Positions 3,377 to 20,626 are shown, numbered from the stretch's first letter. The stretch: 64,000 nucleotides of DNA from an uncultured Acidobacteriaceae bacterium (GCA_963707205.1 CAVPQE010000035.1:8164-72163), one strand, 5' to 3'. Numbers and translations are program-made. The notes: generated from the letters alone by a model not told the origin.

Positions 3377-4687
3377 TCAGACTCCGTCAGCCTCCGCCCG
3401 CTCCACCGTGAGCTTTAGAGAGTGTGTGGCACAGGAGATGCAAGGGTCGTAGTTGCGAATAGCCTGCTCACACTTCCAACTTGCTTCTTCCAACGGCCAC
3501 GCCACTAATCGCATGGCGTAGTCGCGTAAGTCGTCCTCGATCCGTTTCTGGTTTTGCGATGTGGGCGGGATAATCCTGGCGGCGATGATCAGCCCTTTTT
3601 CGTCCATGGCGTAACGATGATAGAGAATGCCTCGGGGTGCCTCGGTAATCGCCTGACCTACCCCGGCCTGATTCGGTACCTCAACTCGCGGTACGGGAGG
3701 AGGTTCGTATTCGCCGATGATTCGTAATGCTTCAGCGCACGCAAACACAATTTCCACTGAGCGAACCATGATGCTACGGAACGGATTCTTCACGGGAACA
3801 GCAAGTTTGACTTCTCGGGCCACTTGCTGTGCTACTTCGGGCAGCTTATCGAAATTCAAATTGAAGCGCGCCATGGGTCCCACCAGATATGAACTTCTTC
3901 CACGCACGACCGAGTGTAGCGCGTTCGAATGCTTCACATGCATTTCGACAAAGTGATCCTCATACTCGGCTGCGTCAATGTCCAGACCTCGATTCGATAC
4001 CAGCCGCCCTTCGTTGAATGGATACTCATCAGGATGACGGAGAGCCACGAATTCATAGTCCTGCTCGAAATCGGGGAATTCCAGATTGGCCGTCCAACGC
4101 GCGGTTTCGAACGAAGCATCCAGCGCCCATTCCACGTCCTCCACTAGTTCGCGCAGTTGTTGCTTGGTGGGTACTTTGTAGAAGCCTCCGACTGCTGCCG
4201 AGATGGGATGAATCTCGCGGCCCCCGAGCAGCGTCACAATTCGGTTGCCGATCTTCTTCAACCGTAACGCTCGCTCGACTACGGCTCGATGGTCCCGGGC
4301 CATGGCAATGGCGTCCTGGTAGCCCAGAAAGTCCGGCGCGTGCAGCATGTAGACGTGCAAGGTGTGACTCTCAATCCATTCGCCGCAGTAGAACAGTCGG
4401 CGGAGGAGGCGCACGGCGGGATCGATGCGAGTTCCCAATGCGCGCTCGATCGCGTGAATCGCGCTCATCTGGTAAGCAATCGGACAGATCCCGCAGATGC
4501 GAGCGGTGATATCGGGAGCTTCGGAGAAATGACGCCCCCGAAGGAAGGCCTCGAAGAACCGCGGCGGCTCATAAATCCTAAGCTTCACGTCCGCCACACG
4601 TTCGCCCACGAGTTTAATGTACAAAGCTCCTTCCCCTTCCACCCGGGCCAATGTGTCCACGCGGATCGTTCTACTATGGCCGCTCAT
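3377..4687 (-). CDS. hyhL: NiFe hydrogenase large subunit, group 3b-like (HyhL)
   Basis: 436 aa. N-terminal RICGICP and C-terminal DPCISCATH Ni-Fe ligand motifs followed by a 14-aa cleavable tail. 4-nt overlap with the small-subunit gene. Operon partners are HydB/HydG-type subunits. Confidence 0.9.
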
Positions 4688-5472
4688 TTGCGCTCATACT
4701 CCTCGCTCGTCTTGCGGAACTGCCAGGACCAGGCGTTGAATCCCCGGAAGGCACGCGTGATCTGCGCATCCGATTGACCGAGGATGTGGAGTTGGGCAGC
4801 CAGTGACGGGGTGTTCGGACTCTCCATCGGCCCGTAGCAGCCGTAGCAGCCTCGATCATAGCTAGGACACAGTGCCCCACATCCCGCCTGCGTCACTGGA
4901 CCGAGGCAAGCAATGCCTCGCGCTACCGTGATGCAGACATTGTTTCTCCGCTTGCACTCCAGGCACACGCTATACGACGGAATGTTCGGCTTGCGCCCCA
5001 GGAGCGTCGCCGCGATCAGCTCGATCAAGTGATATTTGTTGATCGGGCAGCCGCGCAATTCGAAATCCACGGGAACGTGCTCGGCAATTGGAGTCGATAG
5101 CTTTAGGGTGCTGATGAATTGCGGGGTCGCATACACTACGCGAATGAATTCATCCACATCTTTCCAGTTACGCAATGCCTGGATGCCGCCTGCAGTCGCA
5201 CACGCGCCGATGGTAACCAGCGTCGTGCACTGCCGTCGCACCTCTTGGATGCGCTGCGCATCGTGATGAGTAGTAATGGAGCCCTCTACCAGTCCGATGT
5301 CATATGGACCCTTCAGCATGGCGCGCGATGCCTCCGGAAAATAGGCGATGTCGACCGCCCCGGCTACGCCGAGCAGTTCATCCTCGGCATCAAGCAAACT
5401 CAGCTGGCAGCCGTCACAGGACGCAAATTTGAAGACCGCGATCGTCGGTTTGTGCTTGGTATCAGAGTTCAT
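4684..5472 (-). CDS. hyhS: NiFe hydrogenase small subunit (HyhS, NuoB-like)
   Basis: 262 aa. NuoB/20-kDa-type proximal cluster cysteines ([19 protein letters not shown]) plus additional C-terminal Cys clusters. Confidence 0.85.
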
Positions 5473-6304
5473 ACTTTTCCAACAGGGTGCGGATGTTCTC
5501 GTAAGGAAAGACCGGCCCGTCCCTGCAAATAAAGTACGGTCCGTACTGACAGTGACCGCAGAATCCGATGGCGCACTTCATGTTGCGTTCCATAGAGAGA
5601 TAAATGTCCTCGCGCTTGAGCCCGTGGGTCTCCAGTTCGCGAGTGACAAAGCGCATCATGATCTCGGGGCCGCAAACCATCGCGATCGATCGCGCCGGCT
5701 GCAACCGGGCGTACTTAAACAGCGTCGTCACTACGCCCACGTGTCCGCGCCAACTCAACCCGCCATAGTCCACGGTGACCAGAACTTGTGTGTCTGGTTG
5801 ACGGGCCCAACTTGACAGTTCTCTGCGATACAGAAGATCACGAGGACTGCGCGAGCCGTAGAGCACCGTCAGACGCCCGTACTGCTTCCGATTGAGCAGG
5901 ACGTGGTAAATCACTGGACGAAGCGGGGCCAATCCGATTCCGCCAGCAACCACAATGACATCGTGCCCTCGGGCTGCCTCAATCGGCCAGCCCGTGCCGA
6001 ACGGGCCTCGGACGCCAATGCCGTCCCCGACTTTCTGACTCACCAGCGCATGGGTTGCCTGACCCACCGAGCGCACGGTATACACAAGCTGGTCCCGCTG
6101 CAAAGCCTGGCCGCTAATGGAGATGGGCAACTCGCCCACCCCGAATACCCACAACATGCTGAATTGGCCGGGCTGGAATAAGCTTCTATCATTTTCCTTC
6201 TCCGGCTCCAGTGTCAGGGTGAACGTGTCGGGCGTCTCCTTGGCGACCCCGCACACAACGTAGGGCTGCGAAACCATTGGCTCGGTTGTTGTCGTAAGAG
6301 TCAT
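5462..6304 (-). CDS. hyhG: hydrogenase gamma subunit, FAD/NAD(P)-binding with 2Fe-2S (HyhG)
   Basis: The track ORF extends to 6517, but the ATG at 6304 forms an ATGA overlap with the upstream stop. From there 280 aa with a PyrK/FNR-like fold ([10 protein letters not shown]) and C-terminal [10 protein letters not shown] 2Fe-2S motif. Confidence 0.85.
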
Positions 6305-6762
6305 CGCCCGACCGCGTAAACATCGAGCAACTGGAGACGAGTCGCGTCCAGCCGCTGCTCCATGATTTGAGCGAAGCGCTTCAGGATTTCGTAACCCAGA
6401 TCGTGGTTCTCTTCGCACTTGATACGCAAACACTTGCCGTCGAGGGCTATGGCGCGCGTATCCTCGGCAGCGCGGGCGTGGAACTTCCACTGAAAGGGCG
6501 GCAGCAGCCACGACCACCCCAGGATTTCTCCCACACTGAGCGTGGAAACGATGATCGGCTTGTGCTGGGGTGCCACGACTTCCACCGCCACCCTGCCCCC
6601 GCGAATCAGATAGAAGGTGTTGGCTGGGTCGCCCTCTTTCAAAATGTAGGTGCCGGCCTTGAAATGAACGTTGGAGGCGCAGCCCACCAGCAGCGCTATG
6701 AAGTCACGATCTAGACCGGTGAAGAAAGGATGCTCCGCGATGATGCGCTCAAGTGTTTCCAT
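6301..6762 (-). CDS. stand-alone cyclic-nucleotide-binding domain protein
   Basis: 153 aa. cNMP-binding beta-barrel signature (FYLIRGGRVAV, GEILGWSWL, RAAEDTRAIAL). No HTH or other output domain. Overlaps both flanking hydrogenase genes. Confidence 0.8.
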   Translation of the reverse strand: METLERIIAEHPFFTGLDRDFIALLVGCASNVHFKAGTYILKEGDPANTFYLIRGGRVAVEVVAPQHKPIIVSTLSVGEILGWSWLLPPFQWKFHARAAEDTRAIALDGKCLRIKCEENHDLGYEILKRFAQIMEQRLDATRLQLLDVYAVGR

Positions 6763-7897
6763 GATCGTTCCCCTCCCGTATAGCCCGAGCTTCCTCAGTG
6801 ATATCGATTCCTACTGGACACCAGGCAATGCAACGTCCGCAGCCTACACATCCCGAAGTGCCGAATTGATCGATCCACGAAGCCAGCTTGTGGGTCATCC
6901 ATTGACGATAGCGAGCTTTGCCGGAAGTGCGAACGTTGCCCCCGTGGATGTACGAAAAACTTAGCGTGAAGCACGAATCCCAACGGCGCCAGCGCTCGGC
7001 TTGATCGCTGCTCACGTAAGTCACGTCCTCGACCGCGGTGCAGAAGCAGGTGGGGCAAACCATGGTGCAGTTGGCGCACGTCAGGCAGCGGGCGGCGACG
7101 TTGTCCCAGCGTGGATGGTCGAAGTTCTGGTACAGCAGGTCTTTGATGCCGGCAGTGTCGATGCTTCGCATCTGCTCGACCGAGGCCCGCTCCACCGCAG
7201 CTTCTGCCTCTCGAAGATCGGCGTCGGCAGCCGGACCGGTCTGCAGATCAGCTAACACTTCGACGCCGCGATTGCTCCCCGTCTGCACGACAAATCGGTG
7301 GCCGCCCGGTCCGATAAGTTCCGTCAGAGCCAAGTCAAAACCGCTTTGCGCGCGCGGTCCCGTTCCCATCGAAGCACAAAAGCACGTGGCCGCCGACCGC
7401 GTGCATTGCACTGCCACGATGAACACATCTTGGCGTAGCCCCTCGTAAATTGCATCCCGATACTTATCGCCGATCAACACGCGATCCTGAAGCTTGATGG
7501 CTGCCAAGTCGCAGGCCCGGACTCCCAGGAGTGCGTATCGGTGCTTGGGTCGCATCTCATTGTTCAGAATTTGGAAGGTCCCGCCTCGACGTTCGGCCGA
7601 CCACAACCGCACTTCGGCCGGGTGTAGGTACCTCTTCCAGCTCTGGGGTCCCGCGGCATACCCGAACAAGGCCTGATCCTCGCGGCGCTTTAGCCGATAA
7701 CAGCCGCGTTCCTGTTCGTCGGTCCAGCCTGCGGGCAATTGCGCAGCCGACTCGATGCGCTCGTAGACAATTGCCCCGTCACGTACGATAGGGCCAATGG
7801 TCTCGTAGCCCTTGCACGACAACCTTTCGATTAGTTTCTGTAGCTGGTCTGCGTGCAGGATCCTGCGCTGTTCTTCGGCCACTGTGATCACTTCCAA
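6749..7897 (-). CDS. hyhB: hydrogenase beta subunit, FeS protein (HyhB / AsrA-like)
   Basis: 382 aa with Cys clusters [16 protein letters not shown] and [12 protein letters not shown]. Start is TTG at 7897 or GTG at 7891 (the latter has GAAGG about 9 nt upstream). Confidence 0.85.
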
Positions 7898-7960
7898 TGC
7901 CTTCTAGAGTTTTGTCCAAGGCTCAATGATCCGAGTCAGGGTGCCCAAAACTCGCACGTC

Positions 7961-8410
7961 TTAGGCACAAGCCTGAACAGCTCCCGAAACCAACTTCGCT
8001 TCACACTGAATGTTCACGTTCAAGACGCTCGAAACCGGACAGTCGCGTCGAGCGGATTCCACAGCCTCTGCGAATTGACCGTGTTCGAAATCGCGCGTTC
8101 GAGCGACGATCTTGAGGTGTGCTCCCACAATTCGTAATGACTCTCCCACAAAGTCCAGGGTCAAAGCGGTGTTGGTTTCAACCTCGACGGGTCGGATTCC
8201 CACCTTGGTCATTTCTACCGCGACCATTCTGGACATGCTGGAAGAAATAGCGGCGGCCAGCATTTCGCAGGGCGATGTAGAAGTCGCTACCAGACCCGTG
8301 AGCGACCCGAAGGTGTACTTGCTGTTGTTCAAGACCCCGCTCGGAGTGGAAAGCGTGCCTTCTCCGGCGTACGGACCGTCCTTCCAAATAGCGTGTGCTT
8401 CGCGCACCAT
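7961..8410 (-). CDS. osmC: OsmC/Ohr family peroxiredoxin-like protein
   Basis: 149 aa. OsmC-fold length and the two conserved cysteines (SPCEMLAAA and RDCPVS). Confidence 0.8.
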   Translation of the reverse strand: MVREAHAIWKDGPYAGEGTLSTPSGVLNNSKYTFGSLTGLVATSTSPCEMLAAAISSSMSRMVAVEMTKVGIRPVEVETNTALTLDFVGESLRIVGAHLKIVARTRDFEHGQFAEAVESARRDCPVSSVLNVNIQCEAKLVSGAVQACA

Positions 8411-8440
8411 TTGCGGCCTCCCGCGTTTTGGGCGAGTAAT

Positions 8441-8838
8441 CTATTCCGCCCACATTGGTGTTCCGTTTGGCTCCCGAAAGGCCAGGGTCTGGTTGCCCCG
8501 AACCACGGTGCGGGCGATCAGGGCCTCTTGTCCGTGATAGATGATTCTCGACCCGACTACCTGGATCTGGTCCCCCTTGCTAAAGCTCAATTTATTGTCG
8601 TTTAGAAACCGAGTCGGACCAACGTGTACCTGGAACGTGCCGTCCGCCGCTTTCACCAACAGGTGAGTTCCTACGTCGCCGCTGATCGGGCAGTAAAACT
8701 CCTGCACGTCTTGCACTACGCCTTGTACGGTTCTTTCGTTGGAAGCGCTGTAAACTGGCACCCGGTGCCTCGGGCTGGTAAACAGTAGAATTGCAAGGAA
8801 ACAACTGCAGTACCCATAACTGTCTGCGGGATTCTCAT
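8441..8838 (-). pseudogene. exported small beta-rich protein; signal peptide separated from mature domain by a 1-nt frameshift
   Basis: Strong RBS AAGGAGGAG plus ATG at 8838 opens a frame (MRIPQTVMGTAVVS...) that stops after about 40 codons. The 106-aa ORF 8441..8761 is open upstream in another frame through a hydrophobic stretch (CSCFLAILLFTSP) with no start. Restoring one base gives 133 codons. Confidence 0.5.
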
Positions 8839-8878
8839 AGCGCTCCTCCTTTTCGAGACTTGGTGCCGCACAACTCTG

Positions 8879-9403
8879 TCAGGCCGCCGCGGGGGTTCTT
8901 TTGTGTCTCGTCGCCGCCTTGAGCAGCTCGACCTTGAGCATCCCCTCCTGCAGTTCGATCACTGCTCCCTGAGGATCAACTTCTGTCGGCAGGTCGATCA
9001 GCCGCAATACCCGGTCGGGACACCAATCGACACGCTCGATTTGTCCTTCCTCGATCTGGAAGGTGGTAGCTTCTCTCTTTCCAAGGATGGCAACACGTCT
9101 GGGTTCAACGCTGACCTGGAGTTCCTTTTCTGCGAACCCGAAGACGTTGGCGCGAATACTGAGCCGTTCGTCTGATTCGGACGTCGCAATTGATACGGGA
9201 CACAAAAACTCCGACTCCGCCCTGAACCAATCCTCCCAGTCGTGGCCATGCTCACGGCCGCGCTTTTCGAACAACTCAAAAGCCCTGCGAGCAATCGCAA
9301 GTTGCACTGGTTGCATCTCCCACCGCAGCTTTTCGGGATCTTGCGATTGCAACAGCGTGGTTGGCGGTTCAGCTGTGAGAGCAGACATTTTGGTAGATTT
9401 CAT
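8879..9403 (-). CDS. DUF2934-like N-terminal region fused to Hsp20/alpha-crystallin domain
   Basis: Start placed at ATG 9403 (AAGGAGGG 5 nt upstream). N-terminal ARRAFELFEKRGREHGHDWEDWFRAE resembles DUF2934. C-terminal half has the ACD pattern (LSIRANVFGFAEKELQVSVEPRRVAILGKRE ... GMLKVEL). Confidence 0.7.
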   Translation of the reverse strand: MKSTKMSALTAEPPTTLLQSQDPEKLRWEMQPVQLAIARRAFELFEKRGREHGHDWEDWFRAESEFLCPVSIATSESDERLSIRANVFGFAEKELQVSVEPRRVAILGKREATTFQIEEGQIERVDWCPDRVLRLIDLPTEVDPQGAVIELQEGMLKVELLKAATRHKRTPAAA

Positions 9404-10122
9404 AAGACCCTCCTTCGAGCAATGCAGGTGGAAGGGGATCGCTCGGTCGCTTGTCGGAGCCTGCAAAGAGGCTGAAGCGAGCGGCTGGGCTCAATTTGCT
9501 AGAGAACACTTCTACACTTTGCATTTTCCTCGCCGCCTTCTTCGTTTGCCGTGATCCACGTCACTACGCGGCATATTTCTTTGGAGACAAGTCGAGATCA
9601 AATGGCGTGACCGTAATGCGTCGCCTGAAGCTAGATCCGCCTGGATGCGACAGTGCCGCATTTTTGCCGGGAAACCGTTTTGAGGTGCTGGGCGGGAACC
9701 GAAAGTGCGACACGGGTTTCGATTTGTCTGATTCGGTTGTGCCTATGAATAAAAACTGCAATGTCGAAGGTGAACCCGCTGACTGCCCGACCTTGGGGGC
9801 TTTCTGCGCTTGTTTGTTGAACTCACGATTTCAACCCATGATTCGCATGCCTCTCACGACTTCCCGGGGACTTAGAAGGTTCGGCTTGGGACAGTTCCGA
9901 AGCCACCCTGTCGTGCCGCTTGCAAGCGGCTCTCGTGGGTTTAGGAAAGCAGCCCTTATGTTCAAGAAAGAAGAGTGTGGTCGAGTCTGCCCTCGTTCGG
10001 CTCAGACTTCCATGTTTATCAGTACTTCTTAAAGTCGAACCGACCCGACATACCATTCGCAGAAGCCTTGTGCTGTGAGCGCGATCACAAGGCGATTGCA
10101 AGAGTTCTCTCTTGATAACGGT

Positions 10123-10137
10123 CTTGGCACTGCCAAG
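10123..10137. promoter_or_regulatory. perfect palindrome CTTGGCA-C-TGCCAAG, candidate operator
   Basis: 7-bp arms with a 1-nt spacer, about 87 nt upstream of the 10224 start, in a long low-GC intergenic region. Confidence 0.2.
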
Positions 10138-10223
10138 AAATCACCGTTAACTGTGACCAGCGGTACAGCCACCACTGTCAACCAGCGAGAACATAGGCAG
10201 TAAAAACAATTTCCGCTGGAGGG

Positions 10224-11573
10224 ATGGCCGTGAAGAGAGTGTTGATTCTTGGTGCCGCAGGCAGGGACTTCCATAACTTTAATGTCTTCTTCCGTGATAA
10301 CTCCGACTACCACGTAGTCGCATTCACAGCCACACAGATTCCTGATATTGCCGGGCGCCGGTATCCGCCGGAGCTAGCAGGGAGCTTGTATCCAGAAGGC
10401 ATTCCTATTCGCGAAGAGAAAGATCTGGAGAGTCTGGTCGCGGAATACGACATTGATGCCGTGGTGTTTTCCTACAGCGACATTTCTCACCAGAATCTGA
10501 TGCATCTCGCCTCGCGTGCGGTAGCTGCGGATGCCGACTTTTGGCTTTTGGGAACCGGGCGCACGCAACTCAAGTCGTCGCTGCCTGTGATTTCCGTGTG
10601 TGCCGTGCGAACGGGATGCGGCAAGAGTCCGGTCTCGCGCCTGGTCGCCGCAGAGTTACGCCGCCGGGGTCGAAGGCCAGTGGTCATTCGACATCCCATG
10701 CCTTACGGAGACCTCGCGGCGCAAGCTGTGCAACGTTTCGCTGCCATGGAAGATCTCGACCTTCAACAATGCACGATCGAGGAACGCGAAGAGTATGAAC
10801 CGCATATCACTCAAGGGACCGTGGTGTATGCGGGAGTGGACTACGGAAAAATTCTCGCGCGGGCCGAGAAAGAAGCGGATGTCATTTTGTGGGACGGAGG
10901 CAACAACGACACTTCTTTTTATGCCTCCGATCTGGAGATCGTAGTCGTAGATCCGCATCGTGCGGGTCATGAATTGTCCTACTTCCCCGGTGAAGTCAAC
11001 CTGCGGCGCGCGGATGTGATCGTGATCAATAAGGTAGACACCGCAGCGCAGCGCGACCTGGAGACGGTTCGCCATAACATCAAGCTCCACAACCCGAAGG
11101 CTGTTGTTTTTGAGATGGCGTGCCGAGTTTCCGTTCCCCAGCCGCATCTCGTGAAAGGACAGCGCGTATTGGTGGTGGAGGACGGTCCCACACTCACTCA
11201 CGGAGAGATGCCCTATGGCGCCGGCGTGGTCGCGGCCCGGCAGTGCGGGGCGGCAGAACTCGTCGACCCGCGGCCTTATGCCGTCGGATCGATCCGCGGC
11301 ACCTACGAACGTTATGGGCACCTCACGAACCTCTTACCCGCCATGGGTTACAGCGCCATGCAGAGACACGAACTGGAGGAAACGATCCGCCGGACTCCGT
11401 GCGATCTGGTGCTGATCGCCACTCCGATCGACCTCAAGCGGGTGATCAAACTCGACAAGCCGAGCCTCCGCGTGACCTATGAAGTGGAAGAACTCACCAA
11501 GCCCGGACTGGCCGAACTGCTTGCCCAGTTCACGCACAAGCACGAGCCAGCACTGGCAGGAGTCGGAAAATGA
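10224..11573 (+). CDS. COG2403 / cyclic 2,3-diphosphoglycerate synthetase-like P-loop protein
   Basis: 449 aa. N-terminal VLILGAAGRDFHNFN and P-loop-like CAVRTGCGKSPVS. Family recognised from memory only. Stop overlaps the OTC start (ATGA). Confidence 0.7.
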   Translation: MAVKRVLILGAAGRDFHNFNVFFRDNSDYHVVAFTATQIPDIAGRRYPPELAGSLYPEGIPIREEKDLESLVAEYDIDAVVFSYSDISHQNLMHLASRAVAADADFWLLGTGRTQLKSSLPVISVCAVRTGCGKSPVSRLVAAELRRRGRRPVVIRHPMPYGDLAAQAVQRFAAMEDLDLQQCTIEEREEYEPHITQGTVVYAGVDYGKILARAEKEADVILWDGGNNDTSFYASDLEIVVVDPHRAGHELSYFPGEVNLRRADVIVINKVDTAAQRDLETVRHNIKLHNPKAVVFEMACRVSVPQPHLVKGQRVLVVEDGPTLTHGEMPYGAGVVAARQCGAAELVDPRPYAVGSIRGTYERYGHLTNLLPAMGYSAMQRHELEETIRRTPCDLVLIATPIDLKRVIKLDKPSLRVTYEVEELTKPGLAELLAQFTHKHEPALAGVGK

Positions 11574-12541
11574 AAGGCAAAGATTTTCTCTCGATTCGAG
11601 ATTTCTCGCCCTCGGAGATCCAGTATCTGCTCATTCTTGGGCGCCAGGTTAAGGCTGACCCGACCGCCTATAGCACGGCACTCCGGCGCCGGACTCTGGC
11701 CATGATCTTCGAGAAACCCTCATTACGCACCCGCGTGACTTTTGATGTTGGCATCCAGCAACTGGGCGGATTTTCACTCTACCTGTCTCCCGCTGAGATC
11801 AATCTGGGTAAACGGGAGTCGGTGTACGACGTGGCCAAGAACCTGGAACGCATGGTTCAGGGCATCATGGTCCGGACCTTTGACCACGAAGTGGTTGTGC
11901 AGATGTCGCGGTACGCCAGCATTCCAGTCATCAACGGGCTCACCGACTACAGTCATCCCTGCCAGGCGATGGCGGACTACTTCACCATTTGGGAGGCTAA
12001 AGGCAATCTCGAGGGTCTGAAGATTGGGTTTGTCGGCGATGGCAACAACGTTGCGCGCTCGCTGATGTTTACCGGAGCCCAGTTAGGTGCGCATGTCTGG
12101 GTGGCCACGCCTCCAGGGTATGAACTCGACGCGGAGTCTGTGAAGTGGGCTCGCCAGCGCGGCGCTGAGACCGGTGGCACTTGCACCACAACCAATGACC
12201 CCGAGGAGGCGGCTTCCGGCGCGGATGTGATCTACACCGATGTCTGGGCAAGCATGGGGCAAGAGGCGGAAGCGGAAAAGCGGAAACATATCTTCCTCCC
12301 GTATCAAGTCGACACGACTCTGTTCCGCCGAGCCAAACGAGATGCCATCTTTCTGCACTGCTTGCCTGCGCATCGCGGCGAAGAAGTTACCAACGATGTT
12401 ATCGACTCACCACAGTCGCTGGTATTTCAGCAGGCGGAGAACCGGCTGCACGCTCAAAAGGCGATCATGCTGGAACTGATGAAAGGTGAGTTCGTCAAAT
12501 TGCCGGGACTGGTCGAGTTGCAAGAGTTGATGCACGTCTAG
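11570..12541 (+). CDS. argF: ornithine carbamoyltransferase
   Basis: 323 aa. SLRTR carbamoyl-phosphate motif, HPCQ, DVWASMG, HCLPAHRGEEV. Confidence 0.9.
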   Translation: MKGKDFLSIRDFSPSEIQYLLILGRQVKADPTAYSTALRRRTLAMIFEKPSLRTRVTFDVGIQQLGGFSLYLSPAEINLGKRESVYDVAKNLERMVQGIMVRTFDHEVVVQMSRYASIPVINGLTDYSHPCQAMADYFTIWEAKGNLEGLKIGFVGDGNNVARSLMFTGAQLGAHVWVATPPGYELDAESVKWARQRGAETGGTCTTTNDPEEAASGADVIYTDVWASMGQEAEAEKRKHIFLPYQVDTTLFRRAKRDAIFLHCLPAHRGEEVTNDVIDSPQSLVFQQAENRLHAQKAIMLELMKGEFVKLPGLVELQELMHV

Positions 12542-12546
12542 GAGCA

Positions 12547-13551
12547 GTGCACCTTATGAAGACCATACTCCTTGCCATTGGCGGAAATTCCCTGATTCGC
12601 GCGGGAGAAAAGGGAACGATCGCCGAGCAAAGGGAAAACGCCCAGCGGACAGCGGTCCAGGTCGTCGGCTTGATTCGTGCCGACTACCGGATCGTGCTCA
12701 CGCATGGCAATGGTCCGCAAGTTGGGGCAGAACTTCTGCGCTCGGAACGGGGCGCGAGCCAGGTTCCTGGGCACCCGCTGGACGTTTGTGGCGCCTCGAC
12801 CCAGGGTGAGATCGGATATCTTCTCGAGCAATCGTTGCAAACCGAACTGCAGCACGCGGGTCTGCACGTGCCGGTTACGACGGTTCTTACTCAGAGCCTG
12901 GTCTCGCCGGACGATCCCTCGATGAAGCATCCCACCAAGCCCATCGGTCCTTTCTATTCGCGTGTCGATGCCGAGGAACGCCAACGCCTCTTGGGATGGG
13001 AGATCGTGGAGGACGCAGCCCGCGGTTATCGCCGGGTGGTACCTTCTCCGGACCCGATTGACATTGTTGAATTGGAGGTCATTCGAGATCTGGTCAAGCA
13101 GGGCGTGCTGGTCATCGCGTGCGGTGGCGGAGGGATTCCTGTGCTCTGGAAGAACGACACATTGCAAGGGGTGGAAGCTGTCATCGACAAGGATCGCGCC
13201 TCCGCATTGCTCGCCTCGCGCCTCGGCGTCGATCTGTTTGTGATTTCCACGGACACCGACTTTGTGTACCTGGACTACAAGAAACCAACGCAGTGTCCGC
13301 TGCATCGCGTCGGCGCGGCTGAGTTGGAGCAGTATGCGCGGGCGGGTCACTTTCCACCCGGGAACATGGGCCCCAAAATCGAATCCGTATTGCGCTTCTT
13401 AAGCCAAGGCGGGAAGGAAGCCATTATTACTTCTTGCGAGAATCTGTGCCAGTCGGTGGTTGGATCTGCTGGAACCCACATGTTCCCGGATCGCGACCGT
13501 GTGGAAATCAAGCGAAACGCAGAGATCGAACTTCCGGTGGGAGGACGCTAA
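12547..13551 (+). CDS. arcC: carbamate kinase
   Basis: 334 aa. AIGGNSL N-terminus, THGNGPQVG motif, and the amino-acid-kinase-fold C-terminal half. Confidence 0.9.
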   Translation: MHLMKTILLAIGGNSLIRAGEKGTIAEQRENAQRTAVQVVGLIRADYRIVLTHGNGPQVGAELLRSERGASQVPGHPLDVCGASTQGEIGYLLEQSLQTELQHAGLHVPVTTVLTQSLVSPDDPSMKHPTKPIGPFYSRVDAEERQRLLGWEIVEDAARGYRRVVPSPDPIDIVELEVIRDLVKQGVLVIACGGGGIPVLWKNDTLQGVEAVIDKDRASALLASRLGVDLFVISTDTDFVYLDYKKPTQCPLHRVGAAELEQYARAGHFPPGNMGPKIESVLRFLSQGGKEAIITSCENLCQSVVGSAGTHMFPDRDRVEIKRNAEIELPVGGR

Positions 13552-14528
13552 TGCCCCAGCCGACAATCACGACTCGCAAGCCAAACCAGTCTCCTACGTT
13601 GGACTCGCCGCTCAGAGGTGGGATGACCTTGAAGCACGTCGTCGAGTCTCAGCAATTCACCGTTCCCTTGCTCATGGAATTGTTCGAGCGGTCGCGCGGC
13701 ATGGAGCGCGTGGTGGCGCGGGGAGGCTCCCTCGATTATCAGAACCGAATCATGACCACTCTTTTTTATGCGCCTTCGACCCGTACTCGACTCTCGTTCG
13801 AGGCGGCCATGCATCGCTTGGGCGGGAGGGTCTTGTCGACGGAGCACGCGGGCGCGTTTTCTTCGGAGGTCGAAGGCGAGCAGGTCGAGGATTCTATCCG
13901 CATTATCGGCGGTTACTCGGACGTGATCGTCATCCGACACACCGAAGATGACGGTGCGCGACGCGCCGCGGAAGTCTCGTCCGTGCCGGTGATCAATGCC
14001 GGCGATGGAAATGGCGGGCAACATCCGACCCAGGCTTTGCTTGACCTCTACACAATTTACCGGCAGCGCCCGCTCGATGGCCTGAGCGTCGCCATTATTG
14101 GCGAGTTGGACAAAGGGCGTACAGCAAGATCGCTGGCCTATCTGCTGGCCAAGTTTGAACGGGTGAAGATGTTCTTCGTCAGTCCGCCGCAGCTCCAGAT
14201 GAAAACCGACATTCTGGGGTATCTCGATGAGCATGGCGTCCGCTACGAACTGGAGTCGAATATTGACCGCGTGATTGGGGAAGTGGACGTGGTTTACCAG
14301 ACCCGAATCCGGCCCGAGCGAGTCCGGGACGTGAACGGCCTCAGAGGTTATGCCATTGATTCGACTGTTGTGCAGCGCATGAAGCCGGACGCGCTGATCC
14401 TTCATCCGTTGCCCCGCACGGTCGAGTTAGACAAGTCCGTCGATGCCGACCCGAGAGCGATGTATTTCCGCCAAGCCAGGAATGGGCTTTACGTGCGGAT
14501 GGCATTGTTGACCATGCTGCTGGAGTAG
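13551..14528 (+). CDS. aspartate-carbamoyltransferase-like transcarbamylase (atypical)
   Basis: Start at ATG 13551 overlaps the carbamate kinase TAA by 1 nt. 325 aa. STRTRLSFE, QHPTQ and HPLPR motifs match the ATCase type, but the KKGE and RxQxER positions are altered (see findings). Confidence 0.8.
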   Translation: MPQPTITTRKPNQSPTLDSPLRGGMTLKHVVESQQFTVPLLMELFERSRGMERVVARGGSLDYQNRIMTTLFYAPSTRTRLSFEAAMHRLGGRVLSTEHAGAFSSEVEGEQVEDSIRIIGGYSDVIVIRHTEDDGARRAAEVSSVPVINAGDGNGGQHPTQALLDLYTIYRQRPLDGLSVAIIGELDKGRTARSLAYLLAKFERVKMFFVSPPQLQMKTDILGYLDEHGVRYELESNIDRVIGEVDVVYQTRIRPERVRDVNGLRGYAIDSTVVQRMKPDALILHPLPRTVELDKSVDADPRAMYFRQARNGLYVRMALLTMLLE

Positions 14529-14593
14529 AAGCAGCGAGTAGCGCTGCACGACGACTAGGAACAAGATAACTGCACAATCGGCGCTTACCCTCG

Positions 14594-15145
14594 GTGATGG
14601 AGGAGTTCATGACGAAAGAGATTGGGAGTGTACGGCCAGCGGATCTTGAGTCGCAGTGGCCGGCAACCATTGCATCGTTGATTGTCGGCACTGCGTTTTT
14701 TGCCTTGTGGTTCTGGTTGCTGCCACCCTGGCTTGGCTTTCGAGTTGATGTGGCGCGCGTGGCACAGTGGCGATGGATTGCTGTTCTCCCATCGGTGCTT
14801 GGGTTTGCGGTAGCCATACGATGCATCTGGGATTTCGGACGGACGGGACATGGAACGCCCGCGCCCATCGTCCCTCCGAAGCGGCTGGTCGTGGTCGGCT
14901 TCTACCAGTATGTTCGGAACCCGATGTATGTCGGGTTTTTCGTCGGGTGGATCGGATTGTGGGTGGTGTTCGGGCGGGCGAGTTTACCAGCGATCGCGGG
15001 AGCTGTGGCTGTGGTGCTCGGAGTAGCTCTGTTTGTGCAACTGTATGAGGAGCCCACCCTGCGAAAGATGTTCGGCGAGGAGTACGAGGAATATTGCCGC
15101 AATGTGCGACGGTGGCTACCACATATGCGGGCGTGGAAGAAGTAA
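14594..15145 (+). CDS. ICMT/PEMT-family membrane methyltransferase
   Basis: 183 aa, multi-TM. C-terminal GFYQYVRNPMYVG ... EEPTLRKMFGEEYEEY motif. Confidence 0.7.
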   Translation: MMEEFMTKEIGSVRPADLESQWPATIASLIVGTAFFALWFWLLPPWLGFRVDVARVAQWRWIAVLPSVLGFAVAIRCIWDFGRTGHGTPAPIVPPKRLVVVGFYQYVRNPMYVGFFVGWIGLWVVFGRASLPAIAGAVAVVLGVALFVQLYEEPTLRKMFGEEYEEYCRNVRRWLPHMRAWKK

Positions 15146-15220
15146 GAGAACGTTGCGGAGACGAGCCGTGCCGTACCGGATTTCTTTCCTAACCAACCGA
15201 TCGAAAGGAACTCGTAACTT

Positions 15221-16443
15221 ATGACAACGCAACTCATAGAGAAACCCTTACGGACCGAGGACTTCGTCGAACTCGAGAATCAGTATGGTGCCCATAACTA
15301 TCGTCCGCTCGACGTGGTGATCGAGCGCGCGGAAGGCGTCTGGGTGTATGACGTTGAGGGCAAACGTTACCTCGATTGCCTGGCTGCGTATTCCGCGGTG
15401 AATCAGGGGCACTGCCATCCCAAGATTCTGCAGACTCTGGAGGAGCAGGCCCAGAAAGTCACTCTCACCTCGCGCGCCTTCCGCAACGAGCAATTGCCTC
15501 TGCTCTACAAGGAACTCCATGATTTGACCGGGTTCGACATGGTTCTGCCTATGAACTCAGGGCGCGGAGGCTGTCGAAACTGCGATCAAGACGGCTCGCA
15601 AGTGGGGTTACAAGATTAAGGGCATCCCCCAGGACAAAGCCGAGATTATTGTGTGCGCCAATAATTTTCATGGCCGCACCGTCACTATCGTGAGCTTCTC
15701 CACCGACGAACAATACCGCGATGGCTTCGGTCCCTTCACTCCGGGATTCAAAGTCATTCCCGTTCGGCGATGCGCGCGCCCTCCGCGAAGCCATCACTCC
15801 CAACACCTGCGCTTTTCTAGTGGAGCCCATTCAGGGCGAGGCGGGGATCGTCATTCCACCCAAGGGATTTCTCCGGGAAGCGGCGGCAATTTGCCGCGAG
15901 AATCAGGTATTGCTGATGGCCGACGAAATTCAATCCGGTCTGGGACGAACTGGCAAGCTCTTTGCCTACATGCACGATGCGGTCGTGCCCGACGTGTTGA
16001 TCATTGGCAAGGCGCTCGCTGGCGGGTTCTATCCGGTCTCGGCCGTATTGGCGTCTCGCGAGATTCTCGGCGTGTACAACCCTGGCGACCACGGAAGCAC
16101 CTTCGGCGGCAACCCCATGGGCTGCGCCATCGCCCGGACCGCGCTACGCGTCCTCATCGAGGAGAAGATGGTCGAACGTTCCGCCGAACTGGGCGCTTAT
16201 TTCCTGACTCTGCTGCGGACGCTGCGCAGTTCAGATTTGAAAGAGGTACGGGGCAAAGGTTTGTGGATCGGCATCGAACTCCGCAGCCCAGCGCGCCCCT
16301 ACTGCGAGGCGCTCAAGGAGGAAGGAATTCTGTGCAAGGAGACGCATGACCGCGTGATTCGCATCGCACCACCGCTCGTCATCAGTCGTCAGGAGATTGA
16401 CTGGGCCTTTGAGCGAATCGCGAAAGTGATTCAGCGGCATTGA
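15221..16443 (+). pseudogene. rocD: ornithine aminotransferase disrupted by two +1 frameshifts
   Basis: Three ORF pieces in frames 2, 0, 1 read continuously as an OAT: ...VLPMNSG | [40 protein letters not shown]...GFKVIP | [11 protein letters not shown]...EPIQGEAG.... The shifts are at the GGG run 15560..15562 and the CCC run 15759..15761. Length minus 2 nt gives 407 codons. Confidence 0.85.
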
Positions 16444-16681
16444 TCTGCAGCACAAAGAAGTCCGCGAGTTGGGACAGCAACCTGGCAGACGATATTATTG
16501 ACCAGCTCAAGAAGGATCGGGAGAGGTCTTTCAGTAATTACTAAGCTCCGGTCTATTTTGGTTTCTACCGGCCAATGTGGCCAAAAAAATGTGGCATCCG
16601 TATGACTGATGCATGCGCTCCGTGCCAGAGTGAACTTGGGCTAAAGGGTAGGGGACTGAATTCCGAGGTAAGTCGCGTTGC

Positions 16682-16921
16682 TTGATCCAGGGGCTTAAGG
16701 AGAAAGTAGTACTCGTAACCGGAACGAATAATCCTTACGGCATCGGCGCCGGAGTTGCGCGAGCGTCTGCTGCTCAAGGTGCGAGGGGTCCTTGCATAAG
16801 CATCCAGCTGCGTTATCTTCAAACATTGACCGAAATCGGGGTGGAAAGGAACACTACTTTGGTTTTCCCCGTGCCAGTGGACATATTCTCGCGCATCACC
16901 AAGCTCCGGGAGAAAGTCTAA
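16682..16921 (+). pseudogene. short-chain dehydrogenase N-terminal remnant
   Basis: Only the first ~35 residues (LKEKVVLVTGTNNPYGIGAGVARASAAQGA) look like an SDR Rossmann N-terminus. The rest of the ORF does not, and there is no room for a full SDR before the next gene. Confidence 0.3.
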
Positions 16922-16981
16922 GCCCAGCGCCTTGGCGCCCGCAGTTTGCCAGGAGGTGAGGTGTGACATGCGGAGCCAAAT

Positions 16982-17212
16982 CTAGGACTGCTTCCGTATC
17001 TCTTGATCCAGTTTTTTCATCAGGCTTTCTCTTAATTCCTGACCTACCGACACTCTTTTATCAAGCTCCGCTTTCGTTACGACGCCTTTCTCGATTAACA
17101 ACTCGGCTAAGGCCGAGGACTCAGCAAGAGCCTGTGTCGCAAACTTCATCGTATCGGCCAGCACGGGGATCAGCGCGGCGAACTCGCCGCTAATAGGCTT
17201 GTTTACGTGCAT
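16982..17212 (-). CDS. hypothetical small helical protein
   Basis: 76 aa. ATG at 17212 with GAAGGAGAA 7-9 nt upstream; protein-like composition. Confidence 0.55.
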   Translation of the reverse strand: MHVNKPISGEFAALIPVLADTMKFATQALAESSALAELLIEKGVVTKAELDKRVSVGQELRESLMKKLDQEIRKQS

Positions 17213-17529
17213 TGCTACATTCTCCTTCGGTGGTGCTCTATGACGGGTGCATGAAGTCTATTACCAGGACAACTGGCGCGCTATCCCGATTTGCAAAGTT
17301 CACACAGACGACGGATGCTTTATGGGCACGATCGCTATGAATGCTGTGTTTCAGGTGCTCCGGTACGTGGGAGGCGAGTCCAAGAACATTGCCCTGCTGC
17401 ACAACGGTTGCAACCGGAAAACATGCCTGTCCTGCGAGCTGGGCATGACGCTTGGGGAAATGATTTCTTACTGCCTCGGCGAACTTTGATTCGGCGCACT
17501 CCGGATAGTGATCTCGGTCACTGCTTTTT

Positions 17530-17712
17530 TTGACTCGACATGGTCGCGTAAATGATAGGGAGTTAGTTGGTACGCTTCCGAGTACGGTGGACCCGGAGAA
17601 GATTGAGGCCAATTACGTCCATGGTGTACTGGCGATTCAGATGCCAAAACGCGCCGAAGCTAGGCCAAAACAAATCAAGGTGAATGTGACTAAGGCACTG
17701 AAGGCCGCGTAG
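17530..17712 (+). pseudogene. Hsp20 C-terminal remnant
   Basis: LPSTVDPEKIEANYVHGVLAIQMPKRAEARPKQIKV matches the last strands of the alpha-crystallin domain. No matching N-terminal half upstream in any frame. Confidence 0.35.
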
Positions 17713-17829
17713 TCAGCATACGTGGTCTTGGCTGGAGGATGCAGTTCTTAATTGCGGCCCTGGAATGACTGATGTCTGAGGGGTCGCTGCACCGGTGGAG
17801 CCTGCAGAGGATTTTTGTGGGAGGTCGAT

Positions 17830-18225
17830 ATGGCAACCACCAAGGATAGACTTCAGGTTTTGAGGAATGAGTTGCAGTTCTTGGACAGAGGTGGCTACTG
17901 CTCTCCAATCCAATGGAGATCGGCTCGAATCTTCGAGGACTCGCCGACCTGTCCCAAGGATCAGTGGTCCGCTTGCCCGCATGGCGACTGCGTGTTGTTG
18001 GATTTTGTCCCGAAGCAGAGCCGTCACGAAGCGATTCCGTGCCGCCACATTCCCCTAAATGAAAGCGGCGAGACCCTAGACACTCTGTACCGCACGGGTA
18101 CCAACGAGGAGATTCAAAAGACACTTCGAGAATGGCTGCTGAAGACCATTGCGGGACTCGAACAAATAACCCAACCTGAAATGCGGCGATGGGACGAAAA
18201 GGCTGGTCAGCGGGACTTAGGATAG
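17830..18225 (+). CDS. hypothetical protein
   Basis: ATG 17830 preceded by GGGAGG; 131 aa; Cys/His-containing (CSPIQW, CPKDQWSACPHGDC). No family recognised. Confidence 0.5.
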   Translation: MATTKDRLQVLRNELQFLDRGGYCSPIQWRSARIFEDSPTCPKDQWSACPHGDCVLLDFVPKQSRHEAIPCRHIPLNESGETLDTLYRTGTNEEIQKTLREWLLKTIAGLEQITQPEMRRWDEKAGQRDLG

Positions 18226-18238
18226 GTTTGGAGCACAA

Positions 18239-19264
18239 GTGTCCCAAATGCGGAAAGACGTTTTTACCGGTCGCTGGGTAATCATGGCTGAGGCCACGAC
18301 GGTACGGCCCTCCGATTTTCATTTCAAGAAATTCGTCAGGGAGACGACATTCTGCCCATTCTGCGAAACCAACGAAGCCTCCACGCCGCCGGAAGTCTTC
18401 GCAATTCGCCGTCCGAACTCGTCCGCGAACGGGCCGGGCTGGTCCGTTCACGTGGTACCCAACTCCGACCCACGATTACGGATCGAAGGCGAATTGGGAC
18501 GGCGTGCCGAAGGGTTCCACGATCTAATGAACGGGGTGGGCGCACACGAGATAATTGCCGAGACGCCTCGCCACGACCGTAGCCTCCACGAATTCGAAAT
18601 CCACGAAATCCGTGACGTAATCCGAGCGTACGTGGCGCGCATGGTCGATCTGGAGGGCGATAAGCGGATGCGCTACGTGCTGATCTTCAAGAACCATGGC
18701 GAAGAAGCTGGCGCTCACACCATTAGTCATTCGATCTCGCAATTGATGGCCCTCTCGGTAACCCCGCGCACAGTTAAGACCAAGCTTATAACTGCTCGCG
18801 ACTATTTTGCTTTGAAGGAACGATGCATCTACTGCGATGTGCTCGAACAAGAGCTAAAGCAGCGGCAGCGATTGATCGCGGAGAACGAGGATTTTGTTGC
18901 GTTTGCTCCTTTCGCTTCGCGTTTTCCGTTCGAGATGGCAGTATTTCCCAAAGCTCACAACAGCGCCTTCAGCCGCATCAGCCCAGGGCAGGTTGAAAGT
19001 CTAGCCGGGATCCTGCGCGAGGTCTTGCAGAAGTTAGATCACACTCTGGGGGGGCCGCCCTACAACTTATCGCTGCAAGACAGACCCTTCCTGCGACCAA
19101 GAGCAGGGTATTGGAACTCCATCGAAGACGACTTCCACTGGCACATGGAGATACTGCCGCAGATTGCCCGTATCACAGGATTCGAATGGGCGTCCGGGTT
19201 TTTCTACAATCCAGTTCCGCCGGAAGTTGCTGCTCGATGTCTCTCGCCTGTTGCAGATGCGTGA
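18239..19264 (+). CDS. galactose-1-phosphate uridylyltransferase-family (HIT branch III) protein
   Basis: 341 aa. CPFC zinc motif near the N-terminus, two half-barrel repeats, FHWHME second-half motif. The active-site pentapeptide reads HSISQ. Confidence 0.75.
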   Translation: MSQMRKDVFTGRWVIMAEATTVRPSDFHFKKFVRETTFCPFCETNEASTPPEVFAIRRPNSSANGPGWSVHVVPNSDPRLRIEGELGRRAEGFHDLMNGVGAHEIIAETPRHDRSLHEFEIHEIRDVIRAYVARMVDLEGDKRMRYVLIFKNHGEEAGAHTISHSISQLMALSVTPRTVKTKLITARDYFALKERCIYCDVLEQELKQRQRLIAENEDFVAFAPFASRFPFEMAVFPKAHNSAFSRISPGQVESLAGILREVLQKLDHTLGGPPYNLSLQDRPFLRPRAGYWNSIEDDFHWHMEILPQIARITGFEWASGFFYNPVPPEVAARCLSPVADA

Positions 19265-19407
19265 TCCTTCTTGCCTTCGCGCGCGAGCGATTGACAGATA
19301 GTTACGGCGAAACTGGCCGACCGATCGATCCGGAGCTTCATGCCCGCTCGACGGTGGTGCAGTAAGGGGCGTCACAAGGACGTGGGACAGTTGGAAGCCT
19401 ACCGAAC

Positions 19408-19893
19408 CTATCGCTTGTACCCAATCTTGCGCAACAGGTCATGCCGCCATGCGATATCAGCTTGTCCCTCGATGCCTTTTGGCGAACTGCCGTCAATCAC
19501 ACCCAAAACTCCCCGGCCTTGCTCACTCTGGGCAACAATGATTTGGGCCGGGTTGGCGGTGGCGCAGAAAATGGAACAAACCTCGGGGACGTTGCGGATG
19601 ACGTGCAAGACATTGATGGGATAAGCATTCTGCATAACTACAACAAACGTATGGCCTGCACCCAAGGCCTGGGCATTGCGCACAGCGCAATCCCGGAGGT
19701 CCTGGTCGTTGCCCTCCGAACGAGTCAGACACGCGCCCGAGCTTTCATTGAAGGCGAGGCCAAACCGAGCCTGCGGCACAGTCGTGCTCAGCGCTTCGTA
19801 AAGGTCTTCGACTGTCTTGATAAAGTGTGCTTGACCAACAATGATATTGGCTTCCGCTGGGAGTTCCATCGGGACGGCCTTGATCTCCAGCAT
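19408..19893 (-). CDS. adenosine-specific kinase family (PF04008-like) protein
   Basis: Start moved to MLEIKAV (19893), giving 161 aa. Family recognised from the overall sequence (IIVGQAHFIKTVEDLYEAL...FGLAFNESSG...VLGVIDG). Confidence 0.7.
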   Translation of the reverse strand: MLEIKAVPMELPAEANIIVGQAHFIKTVEDLYEALSTTVPQARFGLAFNESSGACLTRSEGNDQDLRDCAVRNAQALGAGHTFVVVMQNAYPINVLHVIRNVPEVCSIFCATANPAQIIVAQSEQGRGVLGVIDGSSPKGIEGQADIAWRHDLLRKIGYKR

Positions 19894-19927
19894 GGTCACC
19901 CTCCGCACGGCGCACAAAATCTGTTTC

Positions 19928-20509
19928 TCACGCGATCCGCTTACGATCACTGTGGACCCGTTCGAGATAGCGGCCCGTCCGGAGATCGACGCGCACCCAT
20001 TCCTCCGGCGCAATGAACAAGGGAACGCGAATCGAAATGCCGTTTTCGAGCGTCGCTTCTTTCCAGGCACTGTCTTGTTGGGAGTGTGCGGGTGGCGCGG
20101 TATGAACTACTCGAGCTTCCACGATATCGGGCAACACCGCACTAATGGGCTTCCCTTCAAAGAATTCCAGGGGTACGGTCGTTCCCGATTGTAAGAAGTT
20201 CACTGCGAGTCCAAGAAGTTCGCCCGGAACTTCGACCTGTTCGAAAGTTCCGGGGTCCATGAAAGTGGATGTCTCGCCTTCACGGAAAAGAAATTCCATA
20301 TTCCGCCGCTCGACTTGCAAATCTTCTACATGCTCCTGGGGTCGGAAGCGAGCTTCCCACAGGCGACCGGTAACCACATTGCTTAATTCAGCCTTCACGA
20401 CGCCGCCCAGTTTCGCGGCTGCCGCCTTGGATTCGACCTTCAAGACTCTATAGATCTTTCCTTCGACTCGGATGACCATTCCGTCCGTTAGTTCTGAAGC
20501 AGTCGCCAT
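19928..20509 (-). CDS. efp: elongation factor P family protein (divergent)
   Basis: 193 aa. Three-domain EF-P layout with C-terminal VPLFIAPEEWVRVDLRTGRYLERV. The loop region lacks PGKG. Confidence 0.8.
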   Translation of the reverse strand: MATASELTDGMVIRVEGKIYRVLKVESKAAAAKLGGVVKAELSNVVTGRLWEARFRPQEHVEDLQVERRNMEFLFREGETSTFMDPGTFEQVEVPGELLGLAVNFLQSGTTVPLEFFEGKPISAVLPDIVEARVVHTAPPAHSQQDSAWKEATLENGISIRVPLFIAPEEWVRVDLRTGRYLERVHSDRKRIA

Positions 20510-20626
20510 CTAGGTCTCCGGGAAGGCAACAGTCTTTGCACCTTCGACTTCGCCCGTTGCGGGAGAAATATGCCGCCTGGAATAAGAAGACTAGGGCAGG
20601 GCGCACAAGGACAGCCCGGCCCGACA

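Follow-up and report, generated by a model that had tools for sequence, protein, structure and literature searches.

A putative bacterial arginine synthetase operon with an aspartate carbamoyltransferase-like fourth gene in an uncultured Acidobacteriaceae bacterium

The DNA analysed here, a stretch of 64,000 nucleotides from an uncultured Acidobacteriaceae bacterium (GCA_963707205.1 CAVPQE010000035.1:8164-72163; hereafter the window), contains a cluster of four genes at positions 10224-14528 that encode a COG2403-type P-loop protein, an ornithine carbamoyltransferase (OTC), a carbamate kinase (CK) and an aspartate carbamoyltransferase (ATCase)-like protein, termed ATCL. The cluster is probably a bacterial operon of the arginine synthetase pathway (arcE-arcB-arcC) for the ATP-yielding breakdown of arginine, to which a distinct, ATCase-derived fourth enzyme has been added. 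An initial annotation of the window had described OTC and CK as an Arc-like, ATP-yielding core that lacks arginine deiminase (ADI; ArcA), and this description was supported, both enzymes scoring above their equivalog cut-offs and no arcA being found. The point missing from that reading was that the COG2403 protein could itself take the place of ArcA. An arginine deiminase would not be needed because an ArcE-type protein would replace the ArcA step, and with the deiminase replaced in this way arginine and citrulline alone would be enough to make sense of the cluster. The pathway was already published in 2024. The operon organization is a bacterial variant of that pathway, and the fourth enzyme is uncharacterized.

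The COG2403-type protein and the ArcE family

Arginine synthetase, ArcE, was described by Michimori, Yokooji & Atomi (2024) as the product of TK2200 in Thermococcus kodakarensis, where it catalyzes the reversible reaction Arg + ADP + Pi ↔ citrulline + NH3 + ATP (PMC11032458). Its discovery started from the observation that many archaea carry arcC without arcA. According to the same report, the annotation of TK2200 was “hypothetical” and that of its homologues “putative GTPase”, the AlphaFold model of TK2200 resembles LpxK (4EHY), and ArcE homologues show low similarity to cyclic 2,3-diphosphoglycerate (cDPG) synthase, lie near arcB or arcC in some genomes and are widespread in bacteria, including Acidobacteria.

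The first gene of the cluster (gene 1, arcE-type; 10224-11573, + strand) encodes a putative arginine synthetase of 449 amino acids, P0001, and this protein corresponds closely to that description. Its only Pfam matches were weak ones to LpxK and CobW, and public sources list its homologues under the names “predicted GTPase” and “cyclic 2,3-diphosphoglycerate synthase”. A phmmer search of P0001 against the PDB returned a single cDPG synthetase (cDPGS) chain, with an E value of 0.022. An AlphaFold2 model built from 26 sequences (pLDDT 92.7, pTM 0.91) gave as its best structural match the cDPGS of Methanothermus fervidus (8ORU/8ORK; E 1e-17, 14% identity), followed by Aquifex LpxK (4EHX/4EHY; E 1e-8). 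The LpxK-like P-loop fold, the low similarity to cDPG synthase and the GTPase-type naming are thus all common to P0001 and TK2200. By these features and its gene context (below), P0001 very probably belongs to the ArcE family, and by analogy its activity would be that measured for TK2200.

Both the database name of close homologues, assigned by NCBI, and the best structural match could also be taken to mean that gene 1 encodes a true cDPG synthetase, making a compatible solute and lying beside unrelated carbamoyl-phosphate genes by chance. The low identity in the structural alignment and the marginal phmmer E value both speak against this. In the M. fervidus enzyme, 2,3-diphosphoglycerate is bound by the P-loop residues K145/R146 (PMC10690619), which align with Thr130/Gly131 of P0001, and because of these replacements the database name is very unlikely to describe the function. 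A passage of the same source further describes cDPG as exclusive to hyperthermophilic methanogens. Together with the recurrence of the CK and OTC neighbors across phyla and the existence of a CK fusion (both below), these points leave a cDPGS function for gene 1 extremely improbable.

The P0001 family is very large and well conserved, with >8000 matches in 90% clusters and 3677 at E ≤ 1e-3 in a 50% representative library. Searching genomes, one per species, yielded 592 relatives, and gene context was counted in the best 80 loci, whose proteins are 58-83% identical to P0001. Their hosts include Acidobacteriota, Aminicenantes, WOR-3, Anaerolineae, Clostridia, Brocadia, Nitrospina, Bacteroidota, Bathyarchaeia, Thermoplasmata and Heimdallarchaeota. 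The relatives from the last three, all archaeal, are 58-62% identical to P0001, with no break in the family between Bacteria and Archaea. A Thermococcales entry was found neither among the clusters of 10 divergent representatives nor in a search with an archaeal profile.

Conservation of the COG2403 gene next to CK and OTC, which the initial annotation had put forward as a check, was evident across many phyla: CK lies downstream of the arcE-type gene in 31 of the 80 best loci, mostly directly, and OTC in 18 of the 80, several contigs ending too early to be judged. The association extends to a natural fusion, the 766-residue protein P0130, in which a CK part (NF009007 score 314, cut-off 266) is joined to ArcE. 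Another homologue, P0246 (806 residues), carries intein-splicing and LAGLIDADG homing-endonuclease domains. A 1369-residue open reading frame (ORF) around arcE in one genome (L090) was set aside; its N-terminal 921 residues contain no Pfam domain, and it is probably a stop-free stretch of high-GC DNA.

Among 301 sampled Acidobacteriota genomes, an arcE-type gene was present in 186 and an arcA match above the cut-off in none. Weaker ADI-family genes occur in 58 of the sampled genomes, in some cases close to arcE. One family of Acidobacteriota (f32) has a full-length gene of the ADI family beside arcE or within 7 kb of it (G115:C2:1086807-1090258, G292:C1:737413-746401 and G066:C2:595878-604273), scoring 230-315 bits where the arcA cut-off is 489. 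ArcE and ADI-like enzymes are therefore not strictly exclusive in that family. A literature search under the name “COG2403” found no papers, and the “arcE” of a paper on TM7x (PMC12815258) proved to be an arginine transporter, a different protein that happens to bear the same name.

Organization of the cluster and the predicted pathway

The four co-directional ORFs were confirmed on the + strand, and together with the profile scores they bear out the gene content originally assigned to the cluster. Gene 1 is followed by the OTC gene (gene 2, arcB; 11570-12541, 323 residues), the CK gene (gene 3, arcC; from ATG 12556 or GTG 12547 to 13551, 331 residues from the ATG) and the ATCL gene (gene 4; 13551-14528, encoding the 325-residue protein P0004), all on the same strand. 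Genes 1 and 2 overlap in an ATGA at 11570-11573, and genes 3 and 4 meet in a TAATG at 13549-13553, both as initially described. The 5-nt gap reported between genes 2 and 3 is not favored, since CK more likely starts at ATG 12556, 14 nt after OTC, than at GTG 12547. An AGGAG or GGAGG Shine-Dalgarno box precedes each of the four starts by 6-11 nt. For gene 1, the GGAGG at 10218-10222 lies 1 nt before ATG 10224 and 7 nt before GTG 10230, the GTG lines up with the ATG of orthologues in an alignment of upstream regions, and most close homologues are 447 residues long; on these three grounds, GTG 10230 is the likelier start.

Gene 2 was identified as an OTC by scores well above cut-off in two NCBIfam models (NF001986, 421 versus 306; TIGR00658, 397 versus 281) and by the ornithine motifs HPCQ, DxxxSMG and HCLP; against the NCBIfam putrescine, acetylornithine and YgeW transcarbamylase models, it fell below every cut-off. 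Gene 3 was likewise identified as a CK (TIGR00746, 371.1 versus 358.25; NF009007, 346 versus 266).

The genome examined comprises 5.55 Mb and is 99.97% complete. By the names of near-identical proteins in public sources, it falls in Terriglobales, close to Candidatus Sulfotelmatobacter. It encodes a canonical second ATCase (pyrB) on contig C26, with a probable dihydroorotase gene (pyrC) after it, and a second OTC (argF) on contig C14, clustered with ORFs read as argC, argG and argH, the argG and argH calls being based on N-terminal motifs only. A full-length carB is also present (1483 bits). The OTC of the cluster is 49% identical to the housekeeping ArgF, of which it is a second, probably catabolic copy, and ATCL shares only 34% identity with the housekeeping PyrB. 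The absence of arcA from the window, noted at the outset, extends to the whole genome in a profile search with a cut-off of 489. The best match, a 284-residue amidinotransferase-fold protein encoded at C25:37810-38664 on the - strand, scored 69 bits and is closest to dimethylargininase (DDAH-like) models, all below their cut-offs. This gene is the sole ADI-superfamily gene of the genome; its putative product could release citrulline from methylated arginines. In the 22 genomes sampled from its family, none gave an ADI-family match at E ≤ 1e-30.

From these assignments, a minimal pathway can be proposed. ArcE would convert arginine, ADP and Pi to citrulline, NH3 and ATP; OTC (ArcB) would then phosphorolyze citrulline to ornithine and carbamoyl phosphate, from which CK (ArcC) would generate a second ATP. 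In relatives of the cluster, a downstream ornithine aminotransferase (OAT) would carry ornithine on to glutamate semialdehyde and hence to proline or glutamate. The authors who described ArcE argued that, where ArgG and ArgH are present, the enzyme serves to convert arginine into citrulline (PMC11032458). Here also, the catabolic direction, with a predicted yield of two ATP per arginine, is favored by gene context: apparent ArgG and ArgH, an ornithine aminotransferase, and housekeeping genes that lie apart from the cluster.

The position of a single CK between two transcarbamylases would also suit an anabolic set in the style of Pyrococcus, in which CK uses ammonia, CO2 and one ATP to make carbamoyl phosphate for OTC (arginine) as well as ATCL (pyrimidines) and the COG2403 protein is an accessory NTPase. 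Older work on a CK-like carbamoyl phosphate synthetase of P. furiosus, as cited in PMC13260591, provides a precedent. This arrangement was nevertheless rejected as very unlikely, given that carB, argF and pyrB are encoded separately in the genome; moreover, deletion of arcC in T. kodakarensis barely affected carbamoyl phosphate supply (PMC13260591), and the scheme leaves neither the conserved ArcE gene nor the ornithine aminotransferase with a role.

Support for the catabolic arginine synthetase operon also comes from related clusters. The order arcE-OTC-CK-ATCL-OAT recurs in six loci from “Acidobacteriaceae” metagenome-assembled genomes (MAGs; L010, L011 and L014-L017) and in three more genomes, from two other Acidobacteriota families (G063, G210 and, in permuted form, G198); a further genome, G280, has arcE-OTC-CK-ATCL without an OAT match. 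The OAT of the relatives is an ornithine-oxo-acid transaminase (TIGR01885, 543 versus a cut-off of 378). Other sampled Acidobacteriota clusters read arcE-OTC-CK or arcE-CK-OTC.

Several observations weigh against this interpretation. The rocD-type ornithine-oxo-acid aminotransferase gene of the window (15221-16443, + strand) is broken across three frames, with shifts near 15560 (a GGG run) and 15755 (a CCC run), and it could be either a real pseudogene or the product of homopolymer errors in sequencing or assembly; at the same position in relatives, rocD is intact at ∼400 residues. An arcE gene was found in only 2 of the 22 other sampled genomes of the family and in neither of two sampled congeners, and the two positive genomes carry arcE-OTC-OAT without CK or ATCL. 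Promoter and terminator scans gave results at chance level. The ArcE reaction is reversible (PMC11032458), and its direction in vivo is taken from context only. Finally, the arcE-arcB-arcC scheme leaves the role of ATCL unexplained.

The cluster is accessory in this lineage. At the DNA level, the region 6000-21000 of the window shows no synteny with the two congeners, so gain and loss of the cluster cannot be told apart. Between ATCL and rocD lies a gene for a PEMT/ICMT-like membrane methyltransferase (14597-15145, + strand), which is found at that position in no related arcE cluster and is probably an unrelated insertion. As a separate observation, the closest relatives of P0001, from two Acidobacteriaceae MAGs (L012 and L013; 82-83% identity), are solitary, with no OTC, CK or ATCL within 8 kb.

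The ATCase-like fourth gene

Whether ATCL is an ordinary PyrB was assessed by profile and by alignment to solved relatives. P0004 exceeds the cut-off of TIGR00670 (288 versus 237) and fails that of NF002032 (255.5 versus 263). Its closest solved structure is Arabidopsis PYRB (6YPO; E 1e-92, ∼55% identity), with an alignment that is nearly gapless. The carbamoyl-phosphate motifs STRTR, Arg105, HPTQ and HPLPR are intact in P0004 and its clade, and P0004 also keeps Arg167 and Arg229. By contrast, P0004 has FSSEVEGE in place of FSSAAKGE, which replaces Lys84 by Glu (E. coli numbering throughout), and RIRPER in place of RIQRER, which replaces Gln231 by Arg. The 240s loop is shortened in acidobacterial ATCL, with loss of its conserved Tyr and Lys.

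In E. coli ATCase, Lys84 is supplied by the neighboring chain and Gln231 contacts the substrates, and mutation of either residue cripples the enzyme; the two matter for catalysis and aspartate binding. Aligned with the ATCL clade, all of the 24 canonical ATCases retain Lys84, Gln231 and the 240s Tyr, and most retain the 240s Lys; this Tyr and Lys are among the further positions that set the clade apart. Lys84 and Gln231 are likewise both present in 17/17 E. coli- or archaeal-type ATCases of other Acidobacteriota, in the housekeeping PyrB and in two PDB references, whereas every arcE-linked ATCL copy lacks the pair.

The arcE-linked copies form a distinct, ATCase-derived monophyletic group (13/13 rows, support 100/97). 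Purifying selection on this clade is strong (dN/dS 0.05-0.13, with dS near saturation). In all 18 contexts examined, ATCL directly follows CK, and in 17 of them, from Acidobacteriota and the FCB group, it lies inside an arcE operon. An acidobacterial genome without ArcE (G211; locus L123, G211:C8:56000-71000, 6451-8321) has CK followed by a degenerate ATCL, with SSLTR for STRTR and SPLP for HPLP, and looks like the remnant of a decaying operon.

A search with a Bacteroidota member revealed a larger ATCL branch in Bacteroidota, Ignavibacteriae, Rhodothermia and relatives. Among the 120 best matches to the Bacteroidota protein, Lys84 and Gln231 are retained together in only four. In 117 FCB-group sequences, residue 84 varies (among others, Ser, Ala, Met, Tyr, Ile and Leu), and Glu or Asp occupies position 231 in 113 of them, as against Arg in Acidobacteriota. 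A charge-swapped salt bridge, with Glu84/Arg231 in Acidobacteriota set against Arg84/Glu231 in one Bacteroidota sequence, was considered and discarded in view of this variation at position 84. The five FCB-group contexts all read ArcE-OTC-CK-ATCL, with ArcE proteins 57-61% identical to P0001 and with CK stop and ATCL start codons that often overlap. The surroundings of these FCB-group clusters (L124, L125, L128 and L129 among them) show some recurrent genes: a short-chain dehydrogenase gene after ATCL in four of the five, acyl-CoA dehydrogenase or electron-transfer flavoprotein genes after that in three of the five, and a GlmS-like amidotransferase gene 5' of arcE in three of the five.

The gene context of ATCL is also unlike that of PyrB, with no pyrC or pyrI neighbor, a second copy in the genome and the canonical pyrB-pyrC pair on contig C26. 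The initial annotation had foreseen that its proposal would fail with an arcA elsewhere in the genome and an ordinary biosynthetic PyrB as the second transcarbamylase; the genome contains no arcA, and its canonical PyrB is a different protein from ATCL, from which Lys84 and Gln231 have been lost. As judged from its residues and context, ATCL is not an ordinary PyrB. It retains a carbamoyl-phosphate site beside a rebuilt acceptor site, and the second substrate that it uses with carbamoyl phosphate is most likely not aspartate. Neither PMC11032458 nor PMC13260591 mentions an ATCL-type gene in its main text.

One of several ways to account for ATCL is that of the initial annotation, in which CK is also fed from another carbamoylated compound, here set on top of the ArcE pathway. 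The enzyme would act in the reverse direction on another N-carbamoyl compound, perhaps the ArcE product of a guanidino compound other than arginine, and the carbamoyl phosphate released would pass to the shared CK to yield ATP. The invariable position directly after CK, often with overlapping stop and start codons, the retention of STRTR, R105, HPTQ and HPLPR while the aspartate contacts are altered, and the strong purifying selection all favor such a role. Set against them are the lack of an identified candidate substrate, the lack of a second ArcE or a deiminase in the cluster, and the high variability of residue 84 together with the opposite charges at residue 231 in the two sub-clades, which argue against one simple common new contact. 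The proposal is accordingly a tentative one. It is similarly conceivable, though doubtful, that ATCL represents a new transcarbamylase specificity class, annotated everywhere as PyrB, that forms an integral fourth enzyme of arcE operons in Acidobacteriota and the FCB group and pairs with CK on a second ureido or amine substrate. It could, for example, phosphorolyze a ureido compound formed by ArcE from a guanidino substrate besides arginine, in which case the operon would harvest ATP from more than one guanidino compound. Other readings are that ATCL runs forward as a transcarbamylase on another substrate, or that it serves as a carbamoyl-phosphate-binding partner of CK.

Biosynthetic supply is a different possibility, in which ATCL, in spite of its substitutions, is a working, perhaps low-activity, ATCase that feeds arginine-derived carbamoyl phosphate into pyrimidines, and perhaps also into maturation of the neighboring [NiFe] hydrogenase. 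In T. kodakarensis, ArcE and ArcB supply carbamoyl phosphate for pyrimidines and for hydrogenase maturation, which requires the ArcB-derived compound (PMC13260591, Michimori et al. 2026). This precedent, the TIGR00670 score of P0004 and its similarity to Arabidopsis PYRB are in its favor, as is the presence of a hydrogenase at two of the clusters: in the window, a divergent [NiFe] hydrogenase operon of group-3b type, which contains a cyclic nucleotide monophosphate (cNMP)-binding gene, lies upstream (3377-7897, - strand), and on one FCB-group contig (L125/L126, 13470-14927) a HyhB-like gene (51% identity) and a cNMP-binding gene lie 5.5 kb from arcE-OTC-CK-ATCL. This proximity may reflect carbamoyl-phosphate-dependent maturation or common anaerobic control, but two cases do not make a pattern. 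Unlike T. kodakarensis, however, the present genome has carB and a canonical pyrB-pyrC pair; the ATCL clade has lost two residues that are invariant in canonical ATCases; and the association with an ornithine aminotransferase suggests a catabolic role. A biosynthetic function of the cluster therefore appears unlikely.

Upstream region and comparison with known systems

Alignment of nine acidobacterial arcE upstream regions revealed a single invariant block, which coincides with two overlapping dyads at 10141-10167 (+ strand), ∼60-80 nt before the arcE start. The first, TCAC-N8-GTGA, occupies 10141-10156, and the second, a Crp/Fnr-like TGTGA-N6-GTACA, occupies 10152-10167; in the related locus L016, the corresponding element reads TGTGA-N6-TCACA exactly. 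By its conservation, the block is a candidate operator. A perfect Crp-type palindrome of the same form, TGTGAGCGCGATCACA, is present further upstream at 10074-10089, 150 nt 5' of arcE, and is not conserved in the aligned relatives; across the window, sites of the TGTGA-N6-TCACA type are no more numerous than expected by chance. No Rfam match was found upstream of arcE at E ≤ 1. A leader peptide was also considered, given a short ATG-containing block 5' of arcE that is conserved in four relatives, and was discarded because the block is not conserved in the window.

If ArcE function holds for this family, the labels “GTPase” and “cDPG synthase” hide an arginine fermentation route that would yield two ATP, and one that appears, from its frequency in the sampled Acidobacteriota, to be very common among bacteria of soils and sediments. 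The way in which genomes are read for arginine turnover and anaerobic energy metabolism would then have to change for communities of this kind. ATCL is a testable candidate for a new transcarbamylase activity or for a new partner protein that handles carbamoyl phosphate, and reconstructions of the pyrimidine pathway that rely on its automatic PyrB label may be wrong.

The system closest to the cluster is that of T. kodakarensis, with ArcE (TK2200), ArcB (TK0871) and ArcC (TK2158). The same three enzyme types occur in both, without arcA; TK2200 and P0001 are alike in their database labels, in their LpxK/cDPGS-like fold and in their weak similarity to cDPGS; and the ornithine aminotransferase downstream of the present cluster recalls the proline route of T. 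kodakarensis. The differences lie in organization and host. The locus numbers of the archaeal genes are far apart, whereas the genes described here form one tight operon, in which the ATCase-derived fourth gene is integral. The host is a mesophilic soil acidobacterium with carbamoyl phosphate synthetase, apparent ArgG/ArgH and a canonical PyrB.

The arcABC(D) operons of the ADI pathway, such as those of Pseudomonas aeruginosa and Halobacterium salinarum, have in common with the cluster a catabolic operon built on OTC and CK as its ATP-yielding core. Control of the ANR/ArcR type is usual for arc operons, and a Crp/Fnr-like dyad lies upstream here. In contrast to those operons, ArcA is absent, no arcD was identified, although none was specifically looked for, and the first step would be carried out by a non-homologous P-loop enzyme that is predicted to save energy in the form of a further ATP.

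ATCL has the full fold of the ATCase catalytic chain as known from E. coli, archaea and plants (Arabidopsis PYRB, 6YPO; M. jannaschii, 2RGW) but differs from canonical ATCase in its altered Lys84, Gln231 and 240s loop, in the lack of an adjoining pyrI or pyrC, and in its constant position after CK. Likewise, P0001 resembles M. fervidus cDPGS (8ORK/8ORU) in its two-domain architecture with an LpxK-like P-loop domain, and it differs from that enzyme in that K145/R146 are not conserved and in its gene context and the biology of its host.

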